A DNA stretch of 64,000 nucleotides from an uncultured Gammaproteobacteria bacterium. GTDB taxonomy: Bacteria > Patescibacteriota > Patescibacteriia > Magasanikbacterales > GWA2-37-8. The notes beneath the pieces are model-generated. The model had not been told where the DNA came from and ran no database searches. It was given only the letters and a program-made list of their open reading frames with translations. The stretch is from assembly GCA_964561035.1 (NCBI GenBank), contig CAZLNR010000001.1, positions 40,577 through 104,576 of the forward strand, read 5' to 3'. Each line of letters starts with the position of its first letter. Within the stretch, counting starts at the first letter, position 1. Below, piece after piece: positions 697-29,676 of this stretch. The translations under genes were made by a program, and so were the position numbers.

Positions 697-772
<76 letters not shown>

Positions 773-791
773 AGAGTAAAATAAGTATGTT

Positions 792-865
792 GGGCGTTTA
801 GCTCAGTTGGTTAGAGCGCCTCGTTTACACCGAGGAGGTCTAGGGTTCGAATCCCTAAGCGCCTA
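792..865 (+). tRNA. tRNA-Val (anticodon UAC)
   Basis: 74-nt cloverleaf: acceptor GGGCGTT/AGCGCCT with two G-U pairs, anticodon stem CCTCG/CGAGG, loop TTTACAC, T-arm TAGGG-TTCGAAT-CCCTA. No CCA is encoded. Confidence 0.8.
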
Positions 866-986
866 CAAGTCAAGCGAGCAAAAAGTTTTGCTCGCGATAG
901 GGATGAGAACGCCGGAGCCATGTCCGCTCGCGCGGACGGCGAGGCGGTGGCTAACCCGAGTTGGCCGAGCCAACGAGAGGTGAAGC

Positions 987-1007
987 CGAATCCCTAAGCG
1001 CCTACAA
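987..1007 (+). repeat. 21-bp direct repeat duplicating the tRNA-Val 3' end (first copy at 848..868)
   Basis: The string cgaatccctaagcgcctacaa is present at 848..868 (T-arm and acceptor 3' side of tRNA-Val) and again at 987..1007. The 118-bp spacer between the copies is GC-rich. Confidence 0.85.
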
Positions 1008-1019
1008 ATTAAATTAAAA

Positions 1020-1048
1020 AACCACATTGTATTTCAATGTGGTTTTTT
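1020..1048 (+). terminator. Rho-independent terminator after the tRNA pair
   Basis: Hairpin ccacattg-tatttc-caatgtgg followed by a T6 run. Confidence 0.6.
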
Positions 1049-1058
1049 AATATTTATT

Positions 1059-1130
1059 TTTTCTCGTCCCGGTGCCTATGGTTTTATCATGATAAGTTTT
1101 TAGATAAAACTATAGGCACTACACAGGGAC
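1059..1130. repeat. Imperfect ~23-bp inverted repeat flanking an AT-rich core at the edge of the GC-rich patch
   Basis: Left arm ctcgtcccggtgcctatggtttt, right arm aaaactataggcactacacagggacgag, core atcatgataagtttttagat. It lies immediately 3' of the minus-strand lipoprotein gene. Confidence 0.5.
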
Positions 1131-1149
1131 GAGCGATTGGCCCGCGTCG

Positions 1150-1656
1150 TCAGTTGTTGGCGACCGTCAACGTTGACTCTTCGATCGTCACGATCCTCTT
1201 CCCGTGGAACGTTCCGCGGGGCAGGAAGGTGATCTCGCGATCACCATCGAAGACGCGGAACGAGTCCGCGCTGTCATCGCCTTCGATGTAGAAGACGATG
1301 TGTCGCATGCCTGGCGGCAATGCGATCCAATACTCTCGTCCCGTCTTGTCGACGGGCGTGAGCACTTGCTCAACGTATTTGGCGTCATCGTCACCGCCGG
1401 TCTCGTTGTTCTTCTTGATGATCTGGGTCACCGTCGCCGTCGTGGCGCCACCCGGTTCGAGCACCAGTCGGTACTCGAACCGGGTGGTGTTCGTGCCGGC
1501 GAACTCGGTCGCCGGCTTGGTTGCTGCCGGTTCGTTCGGTGGCAGCGACGCCGTCGTCGTGACCGCCACGGTGTAGTGACGGTTGTTGGCACCGCCGCAA
1601 GCGATGGTGCCGATGATGGTGAAGAACAACAGGAGCACGAAGAATGCGTTGCGCAT
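1150..1656 (-). CDS. Lipoprotein of unknown function encoded in a GC-rich (~60%) patch
   Basis: 168-aa ORF with signal peptide MRNAFFVLLLFFTIIGTIAC carrying a lipobox (TIAC). A G-rich SD-like stretch (ggggggaa) lies upstream. Codons are GC3-rich, unlike the rest of the window. The overlapping antisense ORFs (1204..1770+, 1188..1394-, 1391..1600-) are treated as spurious. Confidence 0.55.
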   Translation of the reverse strand: MRNAFFVLLLFFTIIGTIACGGANNRHYTVAVTTTASLPPNEPAATKPATEFAGTNTTRFEYRLVLEPGGATTATVTQIIKKNNETGGDDDAKYVEQVLTPVDKTGREYWIALPPGMRHIVFYIEGDDSADSFRVFDGDREITFLPRGTFHGKRIVTIEESTLTVANN

Positions 1657-1956
1657 GGCGGGTTCCCCCCTAGAGACTACCTTTTACACCCGGGATCCTG
1701 GGTGCGAGGAGCTAGGCAGAAACTGCCGAGCATTCTAGGTACAAATATACCCACAATGCTCAGCAGTTAGCGATTTTAAAGAGCTTTTTAGTTATTTTTT
1801 ATCTTTACTTTATAATTTCTTTATATGTATCTTAGCCATATTTTTTTCATTTTGTCAAGTATGCACGTGCGATTTACTATATATGTAGCATAATAATTTC
1901 TAGCAATCCTTTCAAGTTAATGATGCTTAAAAATTTGTGGTATAATTATATATGCT

Positions 1957-3135
1957 ATGACAAAACAACCTGAAGAGCAAAAAATTATTTTACATCAGGG
2001 TATTTATAAGCGACCTGTTTCCATTGCGGATGCCGTATTTATGATTACGGGCATGACTATTGGCGCCGGAGTGTTGGGTATTCCATACGTGGTGGCGCAG
2101 ACAGGGTTAATTATTGGCATCTCCTATATCTTGGTATTGGGTTTGATAATGCTTAGTTTAAATTTGCTGTTAGGCGAAATTGCAATACGCGCCAATGAAT
2201 CATTGCAGATTCCTGGTTTGGTGGGGAAATATTTGGGCAAATGGCCGAAAATTTTAATCAATATCATGATAGTTTTCGGTTCATTTGGCGCGCTGTTGGC
2301 ATATATTATTGGTGAAGGCCAGTCATTATCCGCATTGTTTGGAGGAGATCCAGTGGTTTGGAGTGTTATTTTTTGGAGTATTGCCAGTGTGGTGGTCTGG
2401 AAAGGGCTGCAGGCCGTAAAAACAGTAGAGAAATTGCTTAGCGTTATGGTTATGTCCATTATTGTTGGTATTTCTTTTTATATTTTAAAAGATTTTGACA
2501 CTGCGCATTGGGCCTATACAAATGTGAGTAAATTTTTCGTGCCATACGGTGTAATTTTGTTTGCTTTAAATGGTACGCCGGCCATTATTGAAGCGCACGC
2601 ATTGTTGCCAAAAGATAATCGCAGTTTTAAAAAAGCTCTTATTATAGGCTCTATTATTCCAATTATAATTTATATATTATTTGCTATAGCCGTGGTTGGT
2701 GCCACTGGTCTCAGTACGACCGAGGTAGCAACTATTGGTTTGGGTCAAAAGTTCGGTACAGGAGTATTGGTATTTGGCAATATTTTTGCGATTCTAGCCA
2801 TGAGTGCTGGGTTTATAGGCTCAGGCACAGCCTTGAAACAAAATTTTGTCTGGGATAATAAAATGAACCCATTTTTGGCAGAGCTTGCCGTTGTTTCTAT
2901 TCCGCTGCTACTGTTTATATTAGGAGTACGTCAATTTATTTCTATCCTCAGTGTGGCAGGCGGCTTGGTGATTGGCACAGAAGCGTTGTTATTGGTTTTG
3001 GTATGCTGGCAAGCGAGAAAAAAAAGCGTAATAAAAACAGAAGGATACTCGTTGCATCATTTCTGGTTATTGGCAGTGCCAATTTTTTTGATATTTACTT
3101 TGTTTACTCTTAGAACTATTTTGGCAATCGTCTAA
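1957..3135 (+). CDS. Amino acid permease / transporter (APC superfamily-like, about 11 TM)
   Basis: 392-aa polytopic membrane protein. The N-terminal motif IGAGVLGIPY and overall hydrophobic pattern are typical of amino-acid/aromatic amino-acid permeases. A promoter-like TTGTCA-17-TACTAT lies at 1854..1882. Confidence 0.7.
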   Translation: MTKQPEEQKIILHQGIYKRPVSIADAVFMITGMTIGAGVLGIPYVVAQTGLIIGISYILVLGLIMLSLNLLLGEIAIRANESLQIPGLVGKYLGKWPKILINIMIVFGSFGALLAYIIGEGQSLSALFGGDPVVWSVIFWSIASVVVWKGLQAVKTVEKLLSVMVMSIIVGISFYILKDFDTAHWAYTNVSKFFVPYGVILFALNGTPAIIEAHALLPKDNRSFKKALIIGSIIPIIIYILFAIAVVGATGLSTTEVATIGLGQKFGTGVLVFGNIFAILAMSAGFIGSGTALKQNFVWDNKMNPFLAELAVVSIPLLLFILGVRQFISILSVAGGLVIGTEALLLVLVCWQARKKSVIKTEGYSLHHFWLLAVPIFLIFTLFTLRTILAIV

Positions 3136-3143
3136 CCATGGTT

Positions 3144-4934
3144 TTATGGCTTAACTATAGAGCCAGATCGCGATCCAGCATCGTTGGTATTGAGATTGTT
3201 TGAGATAGGCAGGTGGGAGATGTTTAAATTCTTTTTTACAATGCTGTCAGTGGCAGATAGAGAAATGGTATTTGTAAGACGTAGATTTTTGCCAACTTGG
3301 TTGCTGGTTGGGGTTACGGCTACTTCAAAATACAGACCTGTTTGACTGTTGGCCGGCAGTGAATAGTAGTCCCATGATACTGATCGGTTGGCTGAATTAA
3401 ATGCTAGAGCAGGGCCAATGGTTGTGCTTTGTTTTCCTGTAAATTCAACTCCTTCTGGCAAGGATGTTTCCAGGTTAACATTTTCTATAGCATTTGTAGT
3501 GTTAGCAATAGTGATAAAGACCCAATATTTGGTTGTTTTGCCTACTTGTGGAGGCAGTGAACCGCGGCCAAGCTGATCGCCTTCGGCTGTATAGTAGCGA
3601 GCTTCGGTACCAACAAAAGAAACTTCGGTAGCTAGGATTGTGGAAATTCCTGTGCCGCGTTGATTTATTGTCTGATCAGATATGCCCGCAATCTTTGCTT
3701 CAATGGTTGGAAAAATTTCCAAATGAGCGTTTTCAGTATTGGAAATATTAAGCGTTGGTTTAAGATAGATATTTATAACAAACGAATCGCTATTGCCTGG
3801 TTTTCCGTCAGCCAGGCTGGTTCGATTTGACCTGCTAAAGTAGATGCCTTTTTCTTCTAGCTGTGCATGAGCTTCAGCCGCAGTTTTTTTCCAATCAATT
3901 GAGTTTGGAAAATTTGAACTAATATGCAAGTTTGCGTCTGTGATGGCCATAGATCCTTTATTTTCCCAGGAAATACGAACAGGGATAGTCTGTCCCGGCT
4001 CTACAAAAGTAATATTATTAACAAGATCTACCCGGGCTTCAATTTGAGGTACGATGTTGTTTATGTTTTGTATGGAAGGCGCTTGGGAAATAGGGTGATT
4101 GTTTATGGTTATTATTGGTGCGATTGTTTTTTGGTAGTTACCCGGTGCGGACATGCTGGCAAAGGTGCCGGTAAAACTTCTATTACTATGCGCGGGTATA
4201 GTAATGTTTTTAGAGTCTTTTTCTGATATTGCTTGTCCGAAATTATGTTGCAATGAAATGTTTTCTAGTGTTTGGTCGCTCGTGTTGTGGAGGGTGTAAG
4301 TAAACTTAACAGGGCTGTTTGCGAATGTGGTGGTAGGAGAGGATAGCTCGCCCCAAAGTACGCTCTCTGATAGTTGTGAAATAAGCGAGGCAAGTTTTTG
4401 GTCGCGATTCTTTTTTGTATCGGGCCGATAAGATAAGTTGGCGATAAATTTTGATTCTTGAGAAGGATTGGACCAAAATCGGCCGTTAATTTCAAGTTGT
4501 TTGGATGCGCCCGGTTTAATTTCGGTGATTGCGGGAAAGATATATTGGTCTGAAAATATTTCTTTTGGTGTTTTGTTGCGGTCAATAATAAACCCTTCTG
4601 GAAGTTTAATGCCTAAAGAAACCTCCGATAAAGTATATTTACTATGGTTCGTATACTCCAAAGTTAGCCGCACATAATCACCGCTTTTAACGCGTGTTTC
4701 ACCCAAAGATAAAGACAGATCGATAAGTCCGGCGATGCTTGGTTTCCAGAAAAAAAGAAAAAGGCTGCCTGTCATCATAATGACTGCTGTAGCCAGAAGC
4801 ATGAGATCAAAGACAAATAATTTTTTTGCATGCTGGTAGATGCCGTGATAGTGTGTGTGATAATGATGTTTAAGAAAGCGAATCATATAAAAAATTGTAT
4901 AATTTATTATATCCTTTTTAGGGTCTTTATACAA
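3144..4934 (-). CDS. Membrane-anchored cell-surface protein with repeated beta-sandwich (DUF11/CARDB-like) modules
   Basis: 596-aa ORF with an N-terminal His-rich segment and one TM helix (LMLLATAVIMMTGSLFLFFW), followed by Ser/Thr/Asn-rich repeats. The start could be internal (MIRF at ~4886). Operonic with the HTH gene upstream. Confidence 0.55.
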   Translation of the reverse strand: MYKDPKKDIINYTIFYMIRFLKHHYHTHYHGIYQHAKKLFVFDLMLLATAVIMMTGSLFLFFWKPSIAGLIDLSLSLGETRVKSGDYVRLTLEYTNHSKYTLSEVSLGIKLPEGFIIDRNKTPKEIFSDQYIFPAITEIKPGASKQLEINGRFWSNPSQESKFIANLSYRPDTKKNRDQKLASLISQLSESVLWGELSSPTTTFANSPVKFTYTLHNTSDQTLENISLQHNFGQAISEKDSKNITIPAHSNRSFTGTFASMSAPGNYQKTIAPIITINNHPISQAPSIQNINNIVPQIEARVDLVNNITFVEPGQTIPVRISWENKGSMAITDANLHISSNFPNSIDWKKTAAEAHAQLEEKGIYFSRSNRTSLADGKPGNSDSFVINIYLKPTLNISNTENAHLEIFPTIEAKIAGISDQTINQRGTGISTILATEVSFVGTEARYYTAEGDQLGRGSLPPQVGKTTKYWVFITIANTTNAIENVNLETSLPEGVEFTGKQSTTIGPALAFNSANRSVSWDYYSLPANSQTGLYFEVAVTPTSNQVGKNLRLTNTISLSATDSIVKKNLNISHLPISNNLNTNDAGSRSGSIVKP

Positions 4935-4996
4935 ATAGAGTGCAATAAAAAACTCCTTAAGAAGTAAGGAGTTTTTTAGTTTGAGATTGTCAGTTA

Positions 4997-5362
4997 TTAT
5001 TGGTTGGAGGTTGTGGGGTTTTCTGGAAGCTTGGTTGCTTCTGCTGTTGGTTGAGTGGGTAAAGGTTTGCGGTAAGCAGGGGAGTAAAGCGGGTTTTTGA
5101 TTTTCCAGTTTCCTACAAATTGTCCAATACCTTTATTTTCCAATTTGTTTTTAATAGTAGTGTGCCGCTGAGACCATTTTACCAAGCTTTCAAAGTTAAG
5201 CTTGTATCGTCCTGCAACGACTATATATACGATTTCCTTAGCAGCGATTGCGCGTCTAATTGTCTGTGAATTTACACCAAAAAGCTTGGCTGCCTCAGAG
5301 ATTGATACTCTGATAACTTCCTTTGGCTTGTCCATATCAGAGGTCTGTATTGGTTTATCCAT
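4997..5362 (-). CDS. Helix-turn-helix DNA-binding protein (excisionase/Xis-like HTH_17 family)
   Basis: The HTH segment ISEAAKLFGVNSQTIRRAIAAKEIVYIVVAGRYKL matches the MerR/Xis-type HTH. The ORF track starts at 5398, but a palindrome occupies 5368..5389, so the ATG at 5362 (MDKPIQ...) is preferred. Confidence 0.65.
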   Translation of the reverse strand: MDKPIQTSDMDKPKEVIRVSISEAAKLFGVNSQTIRRAIAAKEIVYIVVAGRYKLNFESLVKWSQRHTTIKNKLENKGIGQFVGNWKIKNPLYSPAYRKPLPTQPTAEATKLPENPTTSNQ

Positions 5363-5367
5363 AGAAA

Positions 5368-5389
5368 TTGTATAGATTAATCTATACAA
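5368..5389. promoter_or_regulatory. Operator-like palindrome P1: TTGTATAGAT-TA-ATCTATACAA
   Basis: Perfect 10-bp arms with a 2-bp spacer, immediately upstream of the HTH gene start. Confidence 0.55.
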
Positions 5390-5441
5390 ATATAGCATAA
5401 TTTCAGCTTTTTGTCAAGTATCTGTGGTAGTGTAGGGGCTC

Positions 5442-5493
5442 GCAGAATACATGAATTTGTATACACTTGTGTATACAAATTCATGTATTCTGC
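5442..5493. promoter_or_regulatory. Operator-like palindrome P2: 52-bp perfect inverted repeat (25-bp arms) with core TTGTATACAC-TT-GTGTATACAA
   Basis: gcagaatacatgaatttgtatacac / tt / gtgtatacaaattcatgtattctgc; the reverse complement matches exactly. Confidence 0.6.
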
Positions 5494-5525
5494 CTATAGA
5501 GTATGGTATATGTGATGGTGTTTTA

Positions 5526-5547
5526 TTTGTATACGCTTGTGTATACA
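5526..5547. promoter_or_regulatory. Operator-like palindrome P3: TTGTATACGC-TT-GTGTATACAA, plus a half-site TTGTATAAT at 5552..5560
   Basis: One mismatch relative to the P2 core. The three centres are spaced 89 and 69 bp apart in the divergent HTH / ECF-sigma intergenic region. Confidence 0.55.
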
Positions 5548-5739
5548 AAATTTGTATAATCAAAGTAGGCTATAATCAATAAAATTTTATAATGTTTTTT
5601 TCTTTAAAATAAAGATGTATCTAAGACGTATCTAATTTGACGAAATAGCGATTTTTTGCTATGGTATGTACCACTTTTATTGTATGTTTAGGCAAACAAA
5701 TAGAAGTGTAACATTTTTATTACTCGTACGTCTTCTTTA

Positions 5740-6321
5740 ATGCCTAGTAACAAAATATCAGAAAAAATAATTCTGTTTAAGCTTCGCGTAAATCAAGATC
5801 CGGAAGAGTTTGCGAAGTTATACGATATGTATGCTGGGCAAATCTACAGCTTTGTTTTTTTTAAAGTGTCAAACAGAGAAGAGGCTGAAGATATTGCATC
5901 AGAGGTATTTCTGAAAGCCTGGAGATATGTAAGCGAAAAAAAACCTATTGAAAGCTTTAGTGGATTATTATACAAACTGGCGCGCAACGCAATTGTAGAT
6001 CTGTATCGAAAAAAATCGCACCATAAAGAAATTTCTTTAGTAAAAAAGAATGAAGAGAATGAGCTGGAGGACGGTCTTGAAACAAAAGAGGTTTGGAGTG
6101 TAGGAATGGAAGAACAAATAGGAGAGAAGATAGAAATAGAAAAAATTATTAAAGCATTAAAAAAACTAAAACAAGAATATAGGGAAGTTATTACTCTGAG
6201 ATATGTTGATGAAATGGATATAAGTGAAATTGCCGAAATTACCGGCAAGGGCGCAATCGCGGTAAGGGTAACGCTTCATAGAGGTTTAAAAAAATTAAAA
6301 AATTTATTGGATAGAAAATAA
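5740..6321 (+). CDS. RNA polymerase sigma factor, ECF (sigma-70 regions 2 and 4)
   Basis: Region 2-like segment YSFVFFKV..EDIASEVFLKAW and region 4 HTH VITLRYVDEMDISEIAEITGKGAIAVRVTLHRGLKKL. Confidence 0.85.
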   Translation: MPSNKISEKIILFKLRVNQDPEEFAKLYDMYAGQIYSFVFFKVSNREEAEDIASEVFLKAWRYVSEKKPIESFSGLLYKLARNAIVDLYRKKSHHKEISLVKKNEENELEDGLETKEVWSVGMEEQIGEKIEIEKIIKALKKLKQEYREVITLRYVDEMDISEIAEITGKGAIAVRVTLHRGLKKLKNLLDRK

Positions 6322-6331
6322 AGGTCAAAGT

Positions 6332-7687
6332 ATGTCAAAAATTCTAATTAGACAATTAAAAACTTTGCGGCATAAAGAAGTTAAGCCGAATGAAGTGTGG
6401 TTAAAAAATAACCGCGATCTTTTATTGTCTCAGATTAGAAACACAGTTTCCGTACAGCCTGCCCGTAAAATGACTTTTGATAACTTTGTAGAATTTTTTG
6501 CAATCTTTTTGCCCCAATCATTTGTACATCGCGTAGTGCGACCAATGGTTGCGTTTATCTTGGTGTTGGCTATGGGCGTAGGTAGTTGGGTTGCCACAGT
6601 GAGTGCTTCGTACCAAGCTTTGCCTGGAGATTTTCTGTATTCCGCTAAGCGCGCTACTGAAACTATCCAAGTTAGGGGAGCCGAAGCTGTTGGTAATACC
6701 AATAACGCGGCAAAATTACATCTTGAATTTGCAAAGCGCCGAGCCGCTGAAACCAAAACAATCGTTTCTCAAAACAATCCAGAAAAGATAAATCTCGCAG
6801 CGCAAACAGTTGGTGATCTTAAAAATGAAATTCAAAATATCAACTCTAAATTAGAAGAGATTAAAACTTCAGACGATTCAGCAGGGGAATTGGTAAAAGA
6901 TATCAATAAAAATACTCAAGAAATAAACGGCGTATTAAAAGAAGTAAAAGTCAATTTACTAATTAGTACTGATAAAGAAAATTCTGCCGATCTTGCTACC
7001 CAGGTTTCAGAAGTAAAAAGCATCGTAAAAGACACGGCTGTCAAAGCTGTAGAGGTTATGGTTGTGAAGCATTTGCAAGGAGATGAATCTGTTTCTAAAG
7101 ACGATGTAAAAGAGGCGATTGCCACTCAGCTCCAAAGCGCAGCTAAAGATGTAGTTGAATCTAAAGATAGTATTACTGAAGTAAACAAAGCTATAAATGT
7201 TGTTAAAACGGAAGTAACAAATGCTATAGCAAAAGAAACTAAATATACTTCGCTGACAACTACAGCTGAGAATGCACAGTTATCAGAAAAAATTGAAGCA
7301 ACTTCAAAACAAACTCAGGAAGCTGTAACCAATTTTCAAAAAGTAAGCACTGAAACTGACAAAACAGTAAGCGAAGGAAAAGAGTTGTTGTCTCAAGACA
7401 ATCTTTCTTCCGCAATTGATAAGATTAAAGCGGTTAATGCGGCAACAGCAGAGGTGGAAAAAATTACCGACGCTACGTTAAAAGCCGTTCAAGAAATATT
7501 GCCGGTTGTTAGCGCGGTGGCAGATGCGGTGAATATACCAAGCAGTACAAGTGTTGCGGTTACTACTACGCCAAATTCAAGTACGTTTGGTATAGTGCTG
7601 AGTCAGTCTAGTACTATTAAGTTTGTCACGACTACCACGTCAACAGTGTCTTTAAAAACAACCACTACTCCAGCCGCAAAACCATAA
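6332..7687 (+). CDS. Putative anti-sigma factor, single-pass membrane protein (DUF5667-like) with long coiled-coil ectodomain
   Basis: Lies immediately downstream of the ECF sigma gene. One TM helix (RPMVAFILVLAMGVGSWVATV), followed by a K/E/T-rich helical region and a Thr-rich C-terminus. The family assignment is from memory of CPR anti-sigma arrangements. Confidence 0.55.
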   Translation: MSKILIRQLKTLRHKEVKPNEVWLKNNRDLLLSQIRNTVSVQPARKMTFDNFVEFFAIFLPQSFVHRVVRPMVAFILVLAMGVGSWVATVSASYQALPGDFLYSAKRATETIQVRGAEAVGNTNNAAKLHLEFAKRRAAETKTIVSQNNPEKINLAAQTVGDLKNEIQNINSKLEEIKTSDDSAGELVKDINKNTQEINGVLKEVKVNLLISTDKENSADLATQVSEVKSIVKDTAVKAVEVMVVKHLQGDESVSKDDVKEAIATQLQSAAKDVVESKDSITEVNKAINVVKTEVTNAIAKETKYTSLTTTAENAQLSEKIEATSKQTQEAVTNFQKVSTETDKTVSEGKELLSQDNLSSAIDKIKAVNAATAEVEKITDATLKAVQEILPVVSAVADAVNIPSSTSVAVTTTPNSSTFGIVLSQSSTIKFVTTTTSTVSLKTTTTPAAKP

Positions 7688-7696
7688 ACATAAAAA

Positions 7697-7730
7697 GGAT
7701 TTCTCAAAAATTTTTGAGAATTTCCTTTCT
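7697..7730 (+). terminator. Terminator-like hairpin after the anti-sigma gene
   Basis: ttctcaaaaa/tttttgagaa perfect 10-bp stem followed by a T-rich tract. Confidence 0.5.
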
Positions 7731-7957
7731 GTGATAAAATGTTTTATCCCAGAAAGGAGAGAGAGTTTCAATGTTTAGCAGGCCTTTGGCTGAAAGAACG
7801 TTGAAATAAAAGAGTTTAAATAGTGGCTATTGCAACAGGTCGAGGGCTGGTAACAGCTCGCAAAGCTTTTGTATCCCCACACGGGGAAAGCTTTGACCCA
7901 ACGGCGATTCGTTTTACGAAGCGATGAAGGGTCAGAGGATAATTATTTTATAAAATT

Positions 7958-10900
7958 ATGACCGATGTATTAAAATCCGTAAAAAAAATCTTTACGGTTT
8001 CCGTTGTCGGCGCCACCATGTTGTGGTCCGTCGGCGTATCGGCTTTGTTGCCATCTGCTGCTAACGCTGCAGTTTGCCCAACACTTGCCGCTGGTGACAT
8101 GATCAAGGTATCTGGTAAAGCAGCTATCTATTCTGTTAACAAAGACTTAAAAGTTCTCTATTTCCCTTCAGGAGATGAGTTCAAGAGTTGGAATGAAAAC
8201 AATTCCTACGGTGGTTACGTAACAGTAACTCAGGAATGTTTTGATTCCTTACCTGTTCCTAGTGCATACCCAGGCGCTGTTAACTACCGCCCAGGTTCAT
8301 ACGTTGTGAAGAGACCTTCTTCAGATCAATTGTATGTTGTTTTGCCAGGAAATTCCTTAGCAAAAATTAGTACTACCGATGCTGCCGCTTTATATGGCGC
8401 TAGCTACAAAGTAATGACTGTTGCCGATGCATTCTGGCCTCACTATGTAAATAGAGGAGCCGATGTTGCTGGTACCGTTCATGAAGGTATGCTCGTCAGC
8501 AAAGATGGTAAGACTTGGTATGTAGCCGCTGGTAAAGTATTAAGAGAAGTAACATCAACCGGCATGACCGCTAACAGATTTAAATCTGCTTTCGTTCACG
8601 CTGTTCCTGCTGCTTACTTAACTGGTACTACAGTTGGTTCTCCACTTGCTGCCTTGGAGTCTGCTTTAACTAACAGAACTCAAGATGGAGCTATCGCTTC
8701 AACTCCTGTAACTGGAGGCAATCTCAGTGTTACTTTAGCTGCTGATAATCCAGCCGCTGGAAACATTGCAGACGGTTCCGCTTACAACAAAGTTTTGAAG
8801 CTTAACTTAAGCGCTTCTGCCGCTACTCAAGTTACTGGTATTACTCTTACTAAAACTGGTCTGATTGCTAACAGCAATGTTACCGGTGTTAGTGTTTGGG
8901 ATGCTGCTGGTAACCGTCACGGTGATGTGATGACTTCCTTGACTTCAGACAACAAAATTACTGTAAGTTTTGGATCTTACCCAATCCTCGTAGGCGCTGG
9001 CGCTTCTGAATCTTTAACCGTAGCCGTAAACATTGCACCTGCTGCAAATTCCGGCTTGGTAGGCTTTAGTGTTGCTGCTGCAACTGATGTTGCAAGCAAT
9101 GGTACAGTAGGTGGTTCATTCCCAATCGTTGGTAACCAAATGGCTATCATTGATGGTAATGCTTCTCTTGCTTCTACCACAATTTCCGGTCTTTCAGTTG
9201 GTGGTTCTTCCTCTCAACCTGCAAGTACCGCATCTGGTAACTTACAAATCGGCGATGTTCAAAAAGAAGTTGCTAAATTCAGATTTACCGAACAAAGCGG
9301 TAATGAAGATGTTGCAGTTTCAAAATTGACTTTCTATGTAGCTGGTACTATTCAAGATGCTGATCTCGCTAACTGGAGTGTTTACGCTCCAAGTGGAGAC
9401 AAGCTTGGTATGACTGCTGCAATGAGTAACCGTTATGTAACTGTTAACTTCACATCTCCTTACGTTGTACCTAAGAGTACAAGTCGTGATTTCACTGTTA
9501 AGGTTGACGTAGTTAACGGATCAACCCGTAACTTCCAAGTTCAATTACAGAGTGATTACGATGTAATGATGAGAGGTGTTACAACCGGATTCTATGTATT
9601 ACCAGCTAACTTCACCACAGCTGTGGCAAGTACAAATGGTTGGTTCAATATGGGTTCTGGTACATTGACCGTTAATAAAGCTCCTACTTCTCCATCTGGC
9701 AACGTTTCTGCTGGCGCACAAAATATTGTGTTAGCTAAATTTGACGTAAAAGCTGCTGGCGAAGGCATGGAATTACGTAAAATGGGCTTGGGAGTTGACC
9801 GCTCTGGATCAACTGGTGCAAGCAAGACTTTAACTGGTAACGTTGTTGTTCGTGATGCTACCGACGGTACTGTCTACTTAACTGTAGCCGGCACTGCTTC
9901 TGCATTGTATGCAGGTGGCGCTCAATACACATTGTCCAGTTACTTAAACTTGACTGCTGGTCAAACCAAGAGCTTAGAAGTTGTTGGTAGTATTGATGCT
10001 ACTGCTACTTCCGGACACAAATATCAAGTTCAAATCGGTAACTTCTATGGCAAGAGACTTTCTACCTTAGATTTTGCTGACAACTTACCAACTTCTGGCA
10101 ACACCAGTACTGCTGCTAACCAATTGACAGTTAACGCTACTTCATTGTCTTGCTATAAAGACACTTCAATGGGTAACGAAACTCGCGCAACTGGTTCAAC
10201 AGCTGTAATTGGTAAATATATTTGTACAGCTGGCACATCTGAAGATGTACGTTTGAGCGGACTTACCTTCGCTTTCAACGGAACTTCCGGTCAAGCTGCA
10301 AATAGCTTCCAGAATATGGCTTTGTGGGATGCAACTTCCGCTACTGAAGTACAGTTGGGAACAACCGTATCTACAGTTGCAAGTTCATCAAACAGCTACA
10401 CCTTTGATTTGACCGTTCCTAAGAGTCAAACTAAAGTATTGAAATTGAAAGCTTATGTTGTTCCTGGTTATACTGGAACAATGTCTTCCTCAATCTCAAG
10501 CGGTAGTTACGTAGGTAAAGACAGTAACAACACCGGTAGTATCTCTACCGCTGTTACCGGTCAAACCATTACTATCGGCTCCGGCACCTTAAACATCACA
10601 AGTGTTACAGATGCAACAACCATTTCTAAAGTATACGGACCTGAACAAACAGGCGTACAACTTGGTAAATGGAAATTCGCTGCTAATAATGATGATGTTG
10701 CTTTGAGCAAATTGACATTGCAAGCTGTGTACGCAAACGGAAGTGGCGCTGCTACAACCTTGGGTACATTTGGTTCATTGGCATTGTACGAAGATGGTGG
10801 AAGTACAGCTTTGGCTACTGCCAGCTTTGTAAACGGTGATGTTGTATTCAATAATTTCTCCTCAAACATTGCTATCAACAGCTATAAAGTATACGTATTG

Positions 10901-28323: not shown

Positions 28324-29676
28324 TTAATAATTGGTCTTCCAAATACCATCCTTGGTTTTGCTTATAAAGTATAATATTTTATTTTTGGTATCTGCCTGCG
28401 CTGTATGTATTTGTTCGGCTATAAGCTCATGGCTGACCAGATAGTATGGAAATAAAATCGTGCTGCGCTGGTTCCATATAAGGGCGAGTGTGTTATATTG
28501 ATCAAGCGGCAAAACAGTATGCAGTTGTTCACCCGATCTGCTTAGCAGCTGAGGCTCTTCGCCGTCGCTATATGTCCATAATTCCCATTGCGACCATAAT
28601 AGCCACCAGTTATTATATGGCGAAACAAAGAAGTTTGTCGTGTCAATTGGATGTAGCCCGTTTTGGTTGGCGAGTATGGCTTTTTTTCCATATAAATTGC
28701 CGATGAGTGCTGTATTTCCTTTGACTTTTAAAAGAGCCGGTTTGTTGCTATTTGGCTGGTCGTTGGTTGTAAAATAAGTTTTATTAACAGTTTGAACAAT
28801 AGTAGGGAAACCTAAAATATCTTTGGTTATTATATAGGCATCGGTATTGGTTGCGAATTGCAAAGCCCATAGTTCGTTTGCTTCCACAGACCAATCTAAA
28901 TATGTATTTGCGGTAACCAGCTGTGATTTATTGGTAGTCGGAGTGTATAAAAAAATCTGATTTTTTGTACTGTAATATACTTGAGGTTCGCTGGTTTGGT
29001 TCCAGATAAATTTTGTAATTGGCGTACCGGAGCCTATAGTAAATAATTTTTTAGTTTCCGCGTTTAATATGTATATCTGCGCAAACGGCTGTTCTGTCGG
29101 AGCGATGACGGCCAGGTTATTTTTTTCATCCCATGTATATTGGAAACGCAGGTCGCTGTCTAATCCGGTAATCTGGGTTTTTTCTTGAGTGCGCACATTC
29201 CATAGCCAAGTAAAAAAACCTTTATCAGTTTGAGTTGTAAATAGTATGTATGCGCCATCGGCTGATACAGAAAAGTCATTTATCGTGCCGCTTATCGCCA
29301 GTTCCAGTTTTGGTTTTTTTATTAAGCGTATTTCTTTAATATAATTTGTTTGTTTGTTTTTTACCTCTATTTCTTTGGACCAATCAATATACCCTTCGGC
29401 GCTTAGGCGGGTGTTATAAGTTGCGGGCGTGATGTTATTAAGGCGAATAGGCAATGTTTTCTGCAGTTTGATATTATTAAGGTAGGCAACCGATTCTTGC
29501 GGCTCTATATCAATACTGATTGATCCAGTTTCTTTGAGTAGGCCGTTATGCCAGTCATAGCGATAGCCGGCAGTATACATGATTAAAAGAGGGGATATGA
29601 TAAAAAAAGCGCTGATAAAAAAAATAAACATGAACTGTCTGATCGGCTTAGTGAATTTTGTTCCTGGATATTCCAT
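28324..29676 (-). CDS. Membrane-anchored beta-propeller (TolB/WD40-like) protein, unknown function
   Basis: N-terminal TM helix, then repeated W/Y-rich beta-strand blocks (..YILFTTQTDKGFFTWLWNV.., ..WNQTSEPQVYYS..). Confidence 0.5.
   Translation of the reverse strand: MEYPGTKFTKPIRQFMFIFFISAFFIISPLLIMYTAGYRYDWHNGLLKETGSISIDIEPQESVAYLNNIKLQKTLPIRLNNITPATYNTRLSAEGYIDWSKEIEVKNKQTNYIKEIRLIKKPKLELAISGTINDFSVSADGAYILFTTQTDKGFFTWLWNVRTQEKTQITGLDSDLRFQYTWDEKNNLAVIAPTEQPFAQIYILNAETKKLFTIGSGTPITKFIWNQTSEPQVYYSTKNQIFLYTPTTNKSQLVTANTYLDWSVEANELWALQFATNTDAYIITKDILGFPTIVQTVNKTYFTTNDQPNSNKPALLKVKGNTALIGNLYGKKAILANQNGLHPIDTTNFFVSPYNNWWLLWSQWELWTYSDGEEPQLLSRSGEQLHTVLPLDQYNTLALIWNQRSTILFPYYLVSHELIAEQIHTAQADTKNKILYFISKTKDGIWKTNY

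Follow-up and report, generated by a model that had tools for sequence, protein, structure and literature searches.

A family of small structured elements ending in a copy of the upstream tRNA tail, with one member behind tRNA-Val near a GC-rich lipoprotein gene of a Magasanikbacterales bacterium

Elements that use a tyrosine integrase to target tRNA genes, such as prophages, ICEs (integrative and conjugative elements) and genomic islands, cross over in the T-loop and carry a block of identity that runs to the tRNA 3' end. Cis-mobilizable elements (CIMEs) are kilobase-scale deletion derivatives of a known ICE that retain its att arms. Short non-coding hairpin elements rich in guanine plus cytosine (GC), including the Rickettsia palindromic elements, the GC clusters of yeast mitochondria and miniature inverted-repeat transposable elements (MITEs), occur in many copies in AT-rich genomes and are polymorphic in presence and absence; we know of none with specificity for tRNA tails or with a 21-bp tRNA duplication. 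Self-cleaving ribozymes can lie directly 3' of tRNAs, as do the hepatitis delta virus (HDV)-like "theta" ribozymes of phages and hammerheads. The Vlp and Vsa lipoproteins of Mycoplasma are phase- or antigen-variable and combine a conserved signal peptide with a variable mature domain; an anomalous GC content, like the 0.54 to 0.61 in genomes of about 0.40 that we describe below, is not to our knowledge a feature of theirs. The bacterial Y RNA YrlA is a tRNA-mimicking non-coding RNA (PMC4201824). In this study, we analyzed a stretch of 64,000 nucleotides (the window; contig CAZLNR010000001.1 of assembly GCA_964561035.1), in which a 139-bp element lies behind tRNA-Val, near a GC-rich lipoprotein gene. 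The element belongs to a family associated with tRNAs of many specificities, with a covarying structure, an empty site in a relative, tandem copies and shuffled modules. We favor, with a probability of roughly 0.55, the reading that it is a non-autonomous, site-specific insertion element for the segment of tRNA genes from position 56 to 76, co-transcribed with its tRNA and folding so that it pairs with the displaced tail. The features of the element and its tRNA genes are as follows.

697..772, plus strand: tRNA-Lys(UUU), first gene of the tRNA transcription unit (ARAGORN; Rfam tRNA model, 68.6 bits)
792..866, plus strand: tRNA-Val(UAC), intact, the proposed insertion target (ARAGORN and Rfam tRNA model)
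848..868, plus strand: repeat copy 1, tRNA-Val positions 56-73 plus CAA, from T-loop C56 to the mature 3'-end position
869..986, plus strand: structured element body (minimum-free-energy fold, consensus structure with covariation, core matches)
873..1005, plus strand: full-length match to covariance model R1 (129.7 bits, E = 3.1e-35)
874-895: P1 hairpin of the element
898-904: element strand TAGGGAT, which pairs with ATCCCTA at 990-996
900-918: conserved core GGGATGAGAACGCCGGAGC
910-913/943-946: P2
917-940: P3 hairpin
939-953: conserved core GCGAGGCGGTGGCTA
950-986: P4/P5 domain
987..1007, plus strand: repeat copy 2, the displaced or duplicated tRNA-Val tail and 3' strand of the closing helix of the element
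1013..1051, read on both strands: 17-bp bidirectional terminator-like hairpin, kept in the relative L003

An earlier note on this DNA had recorded that the last 21 nucleotides of tRNA-Val are repeated a short way downstream, and the repeat proved to be exact. The 21-mer CGAATCCCTAAGCGCCTACAA, which begins at T-loop position 56 of tRNA-Val and ends with the discriminator and CAA, occurs twice, at 848-868 and 987-1007; allowing up to 3 mismatches yielded no third match in the 64 kb, and 0 of 100 shuffles gave any match. Both copies carry the genomic CAA rather than CCA, which argues against an RNA intermediate derived from mature tRNA. The two tRNA genes of the unit score 70.2 and 68.6 bits with the Rfam tRNA model, and the sequence of tRNA-Val is 100% conserved in five relatives. 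In the closest species-level relative, L003 (left flank 92% identical in nucleotides, permease 94% in amino acids), tRNA-Val is followed directly by ATTAAATTAAAAAACCACATTG, exactly as repeat 2 is in the window; the window equals the L003 arrangement plus 139 bp (869-1007). The element is likewise missing from L004, L005, L008 and L072 at the same fully conserved tRNA-Val. This comparison supports a 139-bp insertion at 869-1007 of a conserved structured mini-element of roughly 130 nt, with the repeat acting as a duplication of the attL/attR type. The integration scar proposed in the earlier note is thus borne out as an insertion-type duplication with an empty site in L003, but its content is a 139-bp element, and the lipoprotein gene that the note had linked to it lies outside the repeat pair and not between the copies.

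The same arrangement is present behind an identical tRNA-Val in L006 and L007, where the cores GGGATGAGAACGCCGGAGC and GCGAGGCGGTGGCTA are conserved and the hairpins between them differ fully in sequence from those of the window while retaining the same pairing. A pattern built from two cores, GATGAGAACGCCGGAG-N15-45-GGCGGTGG, was scanned over a metagenome collection and returned 45 stretches on contigs with a GC content of 0.33 to 0.62. The tRNA genes that precede nearly all of these, at a distance of 26-95 nt, cover at least nine amino-acid specificities, and the element always has the same orientation as the tRNA. Most end in 19-24 nt copied from the 3' end of that tRNA, beginning with T-loop position 56. 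Thirty copies, a count that takes in the window copy and the L006 and L047 copies, have a same-strand tRNA 26-95 nt upstream and end in a copy of that tRNA's 3' end. The tRNAs concerned are Val-UAC, Ser-GGA/UGA/GCU, Lys-UUU/CUU, Leu-UAA/GAG, Asp-GUC, Ala-GGC/UGC, Gly-CCC and a predicted Asn. The copied tail is at least 15 nt and mostly 19-22 nt long, its usual length corresponding to tRNA positions 56 to about 76, and it begins at C56 except in T-loops with GATTC, in which it begins at G57. Further copies lie behind Val-CAC, Ser-CGA or Gln-CUG with a duplication that is decayed or undetectable (at tRNA-Gln it could not be detected), and in the rest a contig end interrupts the copy, or the tail is truncated or has diverged (L038, L041, L048). 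A covariance model, R1, was built from 37 copies; its only match in the window is the copy behind tRNA-Val and, since that copy is among the 37 sequences, its 129.7-bit score arises partly by construction. One copy found by the covariance model alone (L041, 965-1103) has GGGAATCGGAC in place of GGGATGAGAAC, a change that lengthens the Watson-Crick pairing to the T-loop of its tRNA.

These results bear on the conclusion of the earlier note, which had taken the repeat to mark a decayed tyrosine-integrase island, or the remnant of a tandem island, with the high-GC lipoprotein gene as its content, or else a chimeric assembly; we now regard this as very improbable. In its favor, integrases that target tRNAs classically leave a direct repeat of a tRNA 3' end that begins in the T-loop, a jump in GC content adjoins the repeat, and the slot between tRNA-Val and the permease gene holds different genes in L005, L007 and L008. 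Yet the mere 118 bp between the repeats are non-coding and make up a full-length member of a conserved family (129.7 bits, E = 3e-35), a complete structured copy and not a random remnant. The lipoprotein gene outside the repeats is GC-rich also in relatives that have no repeat (L003, L004, L072), and no homologues of it were found outside the lineage. Pfam scans of 15 proteins encoded within 20 kb of the window copy showed no integrase-like domain, and the note too had remarked that no integrase remains. Independent assemblies concur as well: two Logan assemblies from different runs are 100% identical to the window, L001 (SRR34217542) over 811-7993 and L002 (SRR12762285) over 1586-7446, and for two contigs of Joint Genome Institute (JGI) sample 3300056788, L076 and L077, identity is 99.5-99.7% in the interval 1-1075, which takes in the spacer and the two repeats. 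The agreement of these four contigs rules out a chimera.

The 118 bp and the copied tail share a covarying structure. The single-sequence minimum-free-energy (MFE) fold of the window copy has z = -5.2, and RNAalifold on 37 distinct copies gave a consensus of six helices with 39 pairs, 30 of which show compensatory changes in both partners. The helices are P1, a 9-bp hairpin; a closing helix; P2, CGCC/GGCG; P3, a long variable hairpin; P4; and P5. The closing helix joins the element strand TAGGGAUGAG to the copied strand CGAAUCCCUA of the tRNA T-loop and T-stem, and by inspection it may be extensible to xGGGAUGAG/CGAAUCCCx with two tandem G-A mismatches. Paired cells amount to 94.5% on the named structure as against 35-44% when partners are slid by 1-3 columns, and the covariation score is 0.577 as against at most 0.13 in controls; none of 500 shuffles reached any of five measures. 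The outermost pair of the closing helix (column 28/143) is CG in 8 copies, GC in 7, AU in 6 and UA in 6, which indicates that the element strand tracks tRNA identity. The strings GAUGAG and CGAA had prompted a hammerhead- or HDV-like reading, which was discarded, as no model matched and the order of the junction strands does not fit.

A strand that follows the tRNA might also act as a guide. It is conceivable, if quite unlikely in our judgment, that the element is a self-targeting RNA in which the strand xGGGAUGAG guides it to the 3' strand of the tRNA T-loop and T-stem and picks the insertion point, the folded core being a ribozyme or the scaffold of an RNA-guided enzyme. The comparison of the window copy with L039 favors this idea, as the guide-like strand tracks the new tRNA though P1 and P3 are nearly unchanged; so do the junction at tRNA position 55/56, which is sharp and constant across all tRNA types, and the conserved single-stranded junctions, which are compatible with a catalytic or protein-binding core. 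On the other hand, Rfam 15 gave no ribozyme or guide-RNA match at E values up to 10, no associated protein was found around the family loci, the genomic CAA of the repeats speaks against a mature-tRNA intermediate here too, and an element that simply brings along the two T-arm halves would account for the pairing just as well.

Several features of the family are those of DNA that moves. Tandem copies occur in L029, L045 and L026; L035 and L049 lie on one 53-kb contig at different tRNAs, and the L041 contig also holds two copies. Modules have been exchanged between copies: L039 and the window copy share P1 and P3 and differ in P4/P5, in the tRNA and in the tail, with the pairing strand changed to match; the P5 of the L006 type is common to copies at Lys and Ala tRNAs; and L019 combines the L036 and L049 types in one chimeric copy. 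Decayed copies are represented by L048, L038 and the third truncated unit of L045. That third tandem unit (L045, 196-290) halts right after GGGGATGAG and goes on as TCCCATCATACGAC, with the core missing, and in L040 a lone P1-like hairpin stands beyond the duplicated tail.

The position of the element predicts its transcription with the tRNA. Between tRNA-Val and the element of the window there is no terminator, and 6 nt past repeat 2 a strong one begins; given the lack of an intervening terminator and the closeness of P1 to the tRNA, the element would be part of the tRNA precursor. The hairpin at 1013-1051 is the predicted end of the tRNA-element transcription unit and probably terminates the convergent lipoprotein mRNA as well. 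P1 likewise begins 1-6 nt after the tRNA with no terminator between in L006, L016, L035, L040, L044 and L051, as it does in the window, and in L034, L040 and L051 the next tRNA directly follows the element. In other copies the tRNA and P1 are separated by a terminator-like hairpin and then a 7-nt stretch complementary to the acceptor 3' strand. This complement would permit a minihelix of acceptor and T-arm, an arrangement that is weakly supported: at least 6 of 7 pairs form in 19 of 37 copies, and the mean is 5.5 observed against 4.8 shuffled, so that the high control leaves the acceptor mimic weak overall. The window copy has no acceptor 5' mimic, and the canonical T-loop sequence is not kept in the element.

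This transcription context is where a functional role for the RNA has to be considered. It is possible, though we think it rather unlikely, that the element is a tRNA-like non-coding RNA gene, a module of tRNA operons and not a selfish insertion, which by mimicry of the acceptor and T-arm recruits RNase P, RNase Z or the CCA-adding enzyme, or, as a decoy or sponge, titrates the factors with affinity for tRNA 3' halves, and which spread between tRNA loci through duplication and gene conversion. The invariant junction nucleotides and the very strong covariation fit such a gene, as do the shared orientation with the tRNA, the frequent placement within a tRNA operon, where another tRNA immediately follows, the acceptor complement before P1 in about half of the copies (19/37 with at least 6/7 pairs) and the lack of a linked mobility gene. 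However, the element is dispensable, being missing in L003, L004, L005, L008 and L072 at the same tRNA-Val; tandem arrays and truncated and chimeric copies resemble selfish DNA; and mimicry is hard to square with a window copy that lacks the acceptor 5' strand, with the loss of the canonical T-loop sequence and with shuffled acceptor mimics that also score high (5.5 observed vs 4.8).

We prefer a model in which a non-autonomous insertion element targets the segment of tRNA genes from the T-loop to the 3' end (positions 56 to about 76). The tRNA would stay intact because a second copy of the segment lands on the far side of the element. Located within the tRNA-Lys/tRNA-Val unit and upstream of its terminator, the element would be transcribed with the tRNAs, and its RNA would fold into a conserved multi-helix junction in which TAGGGAUGAG pairs with the copied strand CGAAUCCCUA. 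Movement would take place as DNA, by site-specific recombination or by staggered-cut insertion, through an enzyme encoded elsewhere, and the folded RNA or folded single strand may be the recognized substrate or may have a role of its own in the tRNA precursor.

Several points weigh against this model. The empty site of L003 could equally have come about through an exact deletion bounded by the 21-bp repeats. The mechanism of movement is wholly inferred, since neither a recombinase nor a reverse transcriptase nor an autonomous relative of the element turned up; among the family loci examined and the viral contigs there was no autonomous relative that could supply a recombinase. In L038, L048 and L041 the duplicated tail has decayed and the rest is intact, so the closing-helix pairing is not kept in every copy. 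As the two cores served as the search pattern, their invariance is partly a matter of ascertainment, and the pair table, with 28 G-U against 18 A-C, carries weak information on the strand. The conserved fold with invariant junction nucleotides is unlike ordinary att arms and suits a functional RNA gene at least as well. Finally, the high GC content of the neighboring lipoprotein gene is not explained by any analysis here.

Searches for known families, enzymes and relatives turned up little. With Rfam 15, only the tRNAs pass in the window region, with nothing notable at 869-1007 at E values up to 10, and nothing was found on 13 other copies at E up to 0.1; the sub-threshold YrlA and permuted transfer-messenger RNA (tmRNA) matches (E up to 10) fall on the tRNA genes and not on the element. 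BLASTN of 860-1760 against phage and plasmid collections gave no match, and the two-core pattern had 0 matches in 2.9 million viral contigs. Seventeen viral-contig matches to one 16-mer are due to chance: they have neither a second core nor a tRNA in the 400 nt upstream, and their covariance-model scores are below 15 bits. An all-against-all comparison of 524 open reading frames (ORFs) around the 45 loci gave no recurrent neighbor protein other than ORFs that overlap the element. No terminal inverted repeats were seen by eye between the ends GTCAAGCG... and ...GGTGAAGC; a MITE was rejected, as the ends are not inverted repeats and the duplication is 21 bp of tRNA in place of a short target-site duplication. 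Full-text literature searches gave no description of such an element; ordinary partial tRNA copies at island ends have been described (PMC9897764).

Other small units were encountered near the family copies. A motif, GAACGAAGTGA(A/G), recurs between the tRNA and the element in L022, L026, L027, L028, L033, L043, L050 and L054; it stands just after Ser and Leu tRNAs, ahead of the acceptor complement and P1, and in L033 it is found also in the loop of a hairpin inserted within the copied tail. At L008, 2013-2113, a partial 5' copy of tRNA-Val (GGGCGTTTAGC ... ACACCGAGGAGGTC) directly precedes the intact tRNA-Val, its D-arm and anticodon 5' part being replaced by about 79 nt made up of four short GC-rich hairpins; this reads as another kind of small GC-rich element, joined to part of a tRNA. 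In L013 (2418-2600 and 4294-4350) further short GC-rich units (GGTGAA..CAGGTTCGCC...) stand behind tRNA-Asn and behind a copy of the element, and those at 2418-2600 end in the tRNA-3'-like strings GGAATCCTCCCCCCGAGCA and GAAATCCTCCCCCCGAGCCA, which suggests that other families of mini-elements carrying tRNA tails exist. Elsewhere in the window, ARAGORN calls an 89-nt tRNA-Gln(CUG) at 28925-29013, which is probably a false positive as it lies within a 450-aa minus-strand ORF (28324-29676). A 133-aa protein with an HTH_17 domain (excisionase/MerR-like DNA binding) is encoded at 4997-5398 on the minus strand, about 4 kb from the tRNA; it is kept in related contigs and no integrase adjoins it.

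The lipoprotein gene beyond the terminator is a separate matter. Its surroundings are listed here.

Window start: 3' part of murG (Glyco_tran_28_C domain)
1063..1133: long conserved hairpin in the interval from the terminator to the stop codon of the lipoprotein gene, with arms that covary among relatives
1080..1536: block that varies among near-identical strains, being allele A in the window, allele B in L077 and largely missing from L076
1150..1656, minus strand: GC-rich hypervariable lipoprotein gene, allele A, 168 aa
1657..1858, minus strand: lipoprotein leader, with promoter-like -35/-10 sequences at 1858-1829
1721-1768 and 1680-1720, minus strand: conserved leader hairpin and GC-rich conserved segment, respectively
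1957-3135: permease gene, further downstream in the window

The earlier note was right that both the spacer and the lipoprotein region are GC-rich: the 118-bp spacer has a GC content of 0.627 and the ORF 0.606, compared with a window mean of 0.408 (300-bp windows: standard deviation 0.044, maximum 0.643 within 1049-1814). They do not make up the single continuous stretch that it had described, since an AT-rich interval (1008-1125, GC 0.271) holding the tRNA terminator and an AT-rich hairpin splits them into two distinct patches, 869-1007 and about 1125-1740, with 1125-1740 being the strongest GC outlier of the window. The lipobox-bearing minus-strand ORF with GC-rich third codon positions was also confirmed: ORF 1150-1656 has a GC content of 0.54/0.46/0.82 at codon positions 1/2/3, and third-position GC (GC3) in five neighboring genes is 0.29-0.38. 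Its product has a hydrophobic N-terminal signal and a lipobox cysteine, MRNAFFVLLLFFTIIGTIAC; the 6 homologues all have Cys20, preceded at position -1 by A or G. These are features of a bacterial lipoprotein, and lipidation is predicted. The signal peptide and Cys20 are followed by a low-complexity linker and an all-beta domain (weak AlphaFold2 model, mean predicted local distance difference test score 59).

The protein has no Pfam family, and a word-indexed protein search gave 0 homologues, with none in the viral contigs either. An exhaustive search of 1.84 billion protein representatives gave 6 weak matches. Three are single-stretch matches (P0001, P0002 and P0005), all at the slot murG-tRNALys-tRNAVal-[gene]-permease of relatives; the other 3 of the 6 consist of short multiple stretches whose origin was not traced, and no homologue was found outside the locus. 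At least five relatives (L003, L004, L006, L072 and L077) have a GC-rich homologue in that slot, whether or not the element is present; these homologues have a GC content of 0.54-0.61 and a GC3 of 0.68-0.92 in genomes of 0.385-0.40. In L003, L004 and L072 the gene occurs without the element, which means that gene and element are independent. The earlier note had suggested a high-GC donor, with best protein matches to be expected in high-GC taxa. The single-stretch matches instead trace to the Magasanikbacteria locus and the homologues are syntenic in close relatives, with none traced to high-GC taxa; a recent import was therefore rejected. The same GC-rich gene in relatives at the tRNA-Lys/tRNA-Val locus is what the note had itself named as speaking against a foreign fragment, and on that count the idea fails.

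Three allele states exist among strains that are 99.5-99.7% identical on the left flank: allele A in the window, allele B in L077 and a deletion in L076. Alleles A and B are 66% identical over the first 42 aa and 28% over the remainder, and L076 has allele A minus about 455 bp between two CCGGT microhomologies, leaving a 53-aa stump (P0002). The variable block extends from inside the hairpin at 1063-1133 to about 1536, and the leader and signal-peptide region are conserved. Different alleles and a deletion in near-identical strains, together with the slot homologues in relatives, argue for a lineage-native gene and not a high-GC import or chimera. We read the protein, from these alignments, as a predicted lineage-specific hypervariable surface protein whose mature domain appears to be swapped or deleted by recombination within conserved flanks; no paralogues or silent cassettes were found in the window. 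High GC is a stable property of the locus, for which recombination-linked biased gene conversion, mRNA selection and local mutational bias are candidate causes. The public Logan gene call at this place is an Arg-rich antisense ORF of 188 aa (window 1204-1770, plus strand; L001:394-960) instead of the lipoprotein, whose true product is not on record in the protein collection, and this antisense call helps to explain why the family is nearly invisible in protein databases.

The hairpin at 1063-1133 (about 70 nt, TCTCGTCCCGGTGCCTATGG...CTATAGGCAC..GGGACGAG) is kept with covarying arms in L003, L004, L006, L072 and L077, and L007, in which a different gene comes next, has a hairpin of unrelated sequence at the equivalent site. 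It is followed by a T-run on neither strand, and its left arm holds the left edge of the variable block and the L076 deletion endpoint. The leader (1657-1830, minus strand) contains the conserved 21-23-bp hairpin at 1721-1768 and the GC-rich conserved segment with a second small helix, and could be a regulatory or stabilizing RNA structure. A likeness of 1680-1707 to tRNA-Lys (71% over 28 nt) is probably incidental, the conserved leader hairpin being the better fit. At 1448-1487 an 18-bp near-perfect palindrome, CCACCCGGTTCGAGCACC / GGTACTCGAACCGGGTGG, lies in frame in the lipoprotein ORF and encodes TRFEYRLVLEPG; it occurs in the window allele only and not in the homologues. The L002 contig starts at window position 1586, near the onset of allele divergence (about 1537-1558), and this start may reflect co-existing alleles that split the assembly graph in that sample.

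Syntenic loci were retrieved from species-representative genomes with the downstream permease (1957-3135). L004 and L006 are recorded as Candidatus Magasanikiibacteriota or Magasanikbacteria, of the Patescibacteria group. L003, L005, L007 and L008 share 68-94% permease identity with Magasanikbacteria genomes, and the order murG-tRNALys-tRNAVal-permease is common to L003, L005 and L008, with L007 being a 2.4-kb fragment without tRNA; on the basis of permease identity and shared synteny, we treat L003 to L008 as one lineage. The metagenome-assembled genome titles of L003, L005, L007 and L008, "uncultured Gammaproteobacteria", are likely wrong, given the Magasanikbacteria synteny and permease identity.

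One may envisage, as a speculation that we consider unlikely, a new class of RNA-programmed mobile unit. A folded RNA or single-stranded DNA of about 130 nt may use a short, reprogrammable guide strand to recognize the 3' strand of the T-loop and T-stem of any tRNA gene and may insert at the fixed position 55/56 (or after about 76), so that precisely the final 21 nt of the tRNA are duplicated, either through catalysis of its own or with a guided host or unlinked enzyme. Separately, the GC content of the lipoprotein locus may be kept high by a local recombination-linked or mutational bias that also makes surface diversity.

Duplicated tRNA tails are usually taken as scars of large integrase islands, and here they mark a tiny and complete non-coding element. 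The family is common in uncultivated bacteria, yet it is in no RNA-family or mobile-element catalog that we searched; it appears to be uncatalogued, and this is the main value of the finding. If mobile, it would be the smallest tRNA-specific insertion element that we are aware of, with a covarying guide-like strand that suggests a retargetable principle of recognition; if it is a functional RNA, it would be a new component of tRNA operons in Patescibacteria and other lineages. There are consequences for annotation, as copies of the element produce false partial-tRNA or att calls, and gene callers trained on an AT-rich genome choose the antisense ORF and hide a hypervariable surface protein family. 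The lasting GC anomaly of the lipoprotein gene across species is an unexplained case against simple amelioration.

Compared with described systems, the element shares with integrase elements and their attL/attR ends a tRNA 3' repeat that starts in the T-loop, an intact tRNA, an empty site in a relative and tandem accretion. It differs from them in having about 110-170 nt between the repeats with no integrase or cargo, a conserved covarying fold, a single family at tRNAs of at least nine specificities, and an internal strand complementary to the duplicated T-arm strand. Like CIMEs, it has att-like repeats around DNA without recombination genes and is presumed to be mobilized in trans; unlike them, it has no autonomous parent among the loci found and is a compact folded unit across genomes with a GC content of 0.33-0.62. 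Short size, high GC content, lack of coding capacity, hairpin formation, multiple copies and presence/absence polymorphism are what it has in common with the GC-rich palindromic elements. With YrlA, the tRNA-like domain of tmRNA and viral tRNA-like structures it shares a possible helix resembling acceptor and T-arm, and a tRNA transcription context, but it mimics whichever tRNA is upstream, has a two-arm insertion of about 85 nt in place of the T-loop and shows no Ro/Rtc or SmpB context. Like theta ribozymes and hammerheads, it is a structured RNA directly downstream of a tRNA in what would be the same transcript; in contrast to them, it has no Rfam ribozyme match, carries a duplicated tRNA tail and occurs in none of the 2.9 million viral contigs. 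The lipoprotein gene resembles Vlp and Vsa in its conserved signal peptide and leader, divergent mature part and deletion allele, and differs from them in that no silent cassettes or paralogues in the 64 kb, and no repeats or invertible promoter, were seen.

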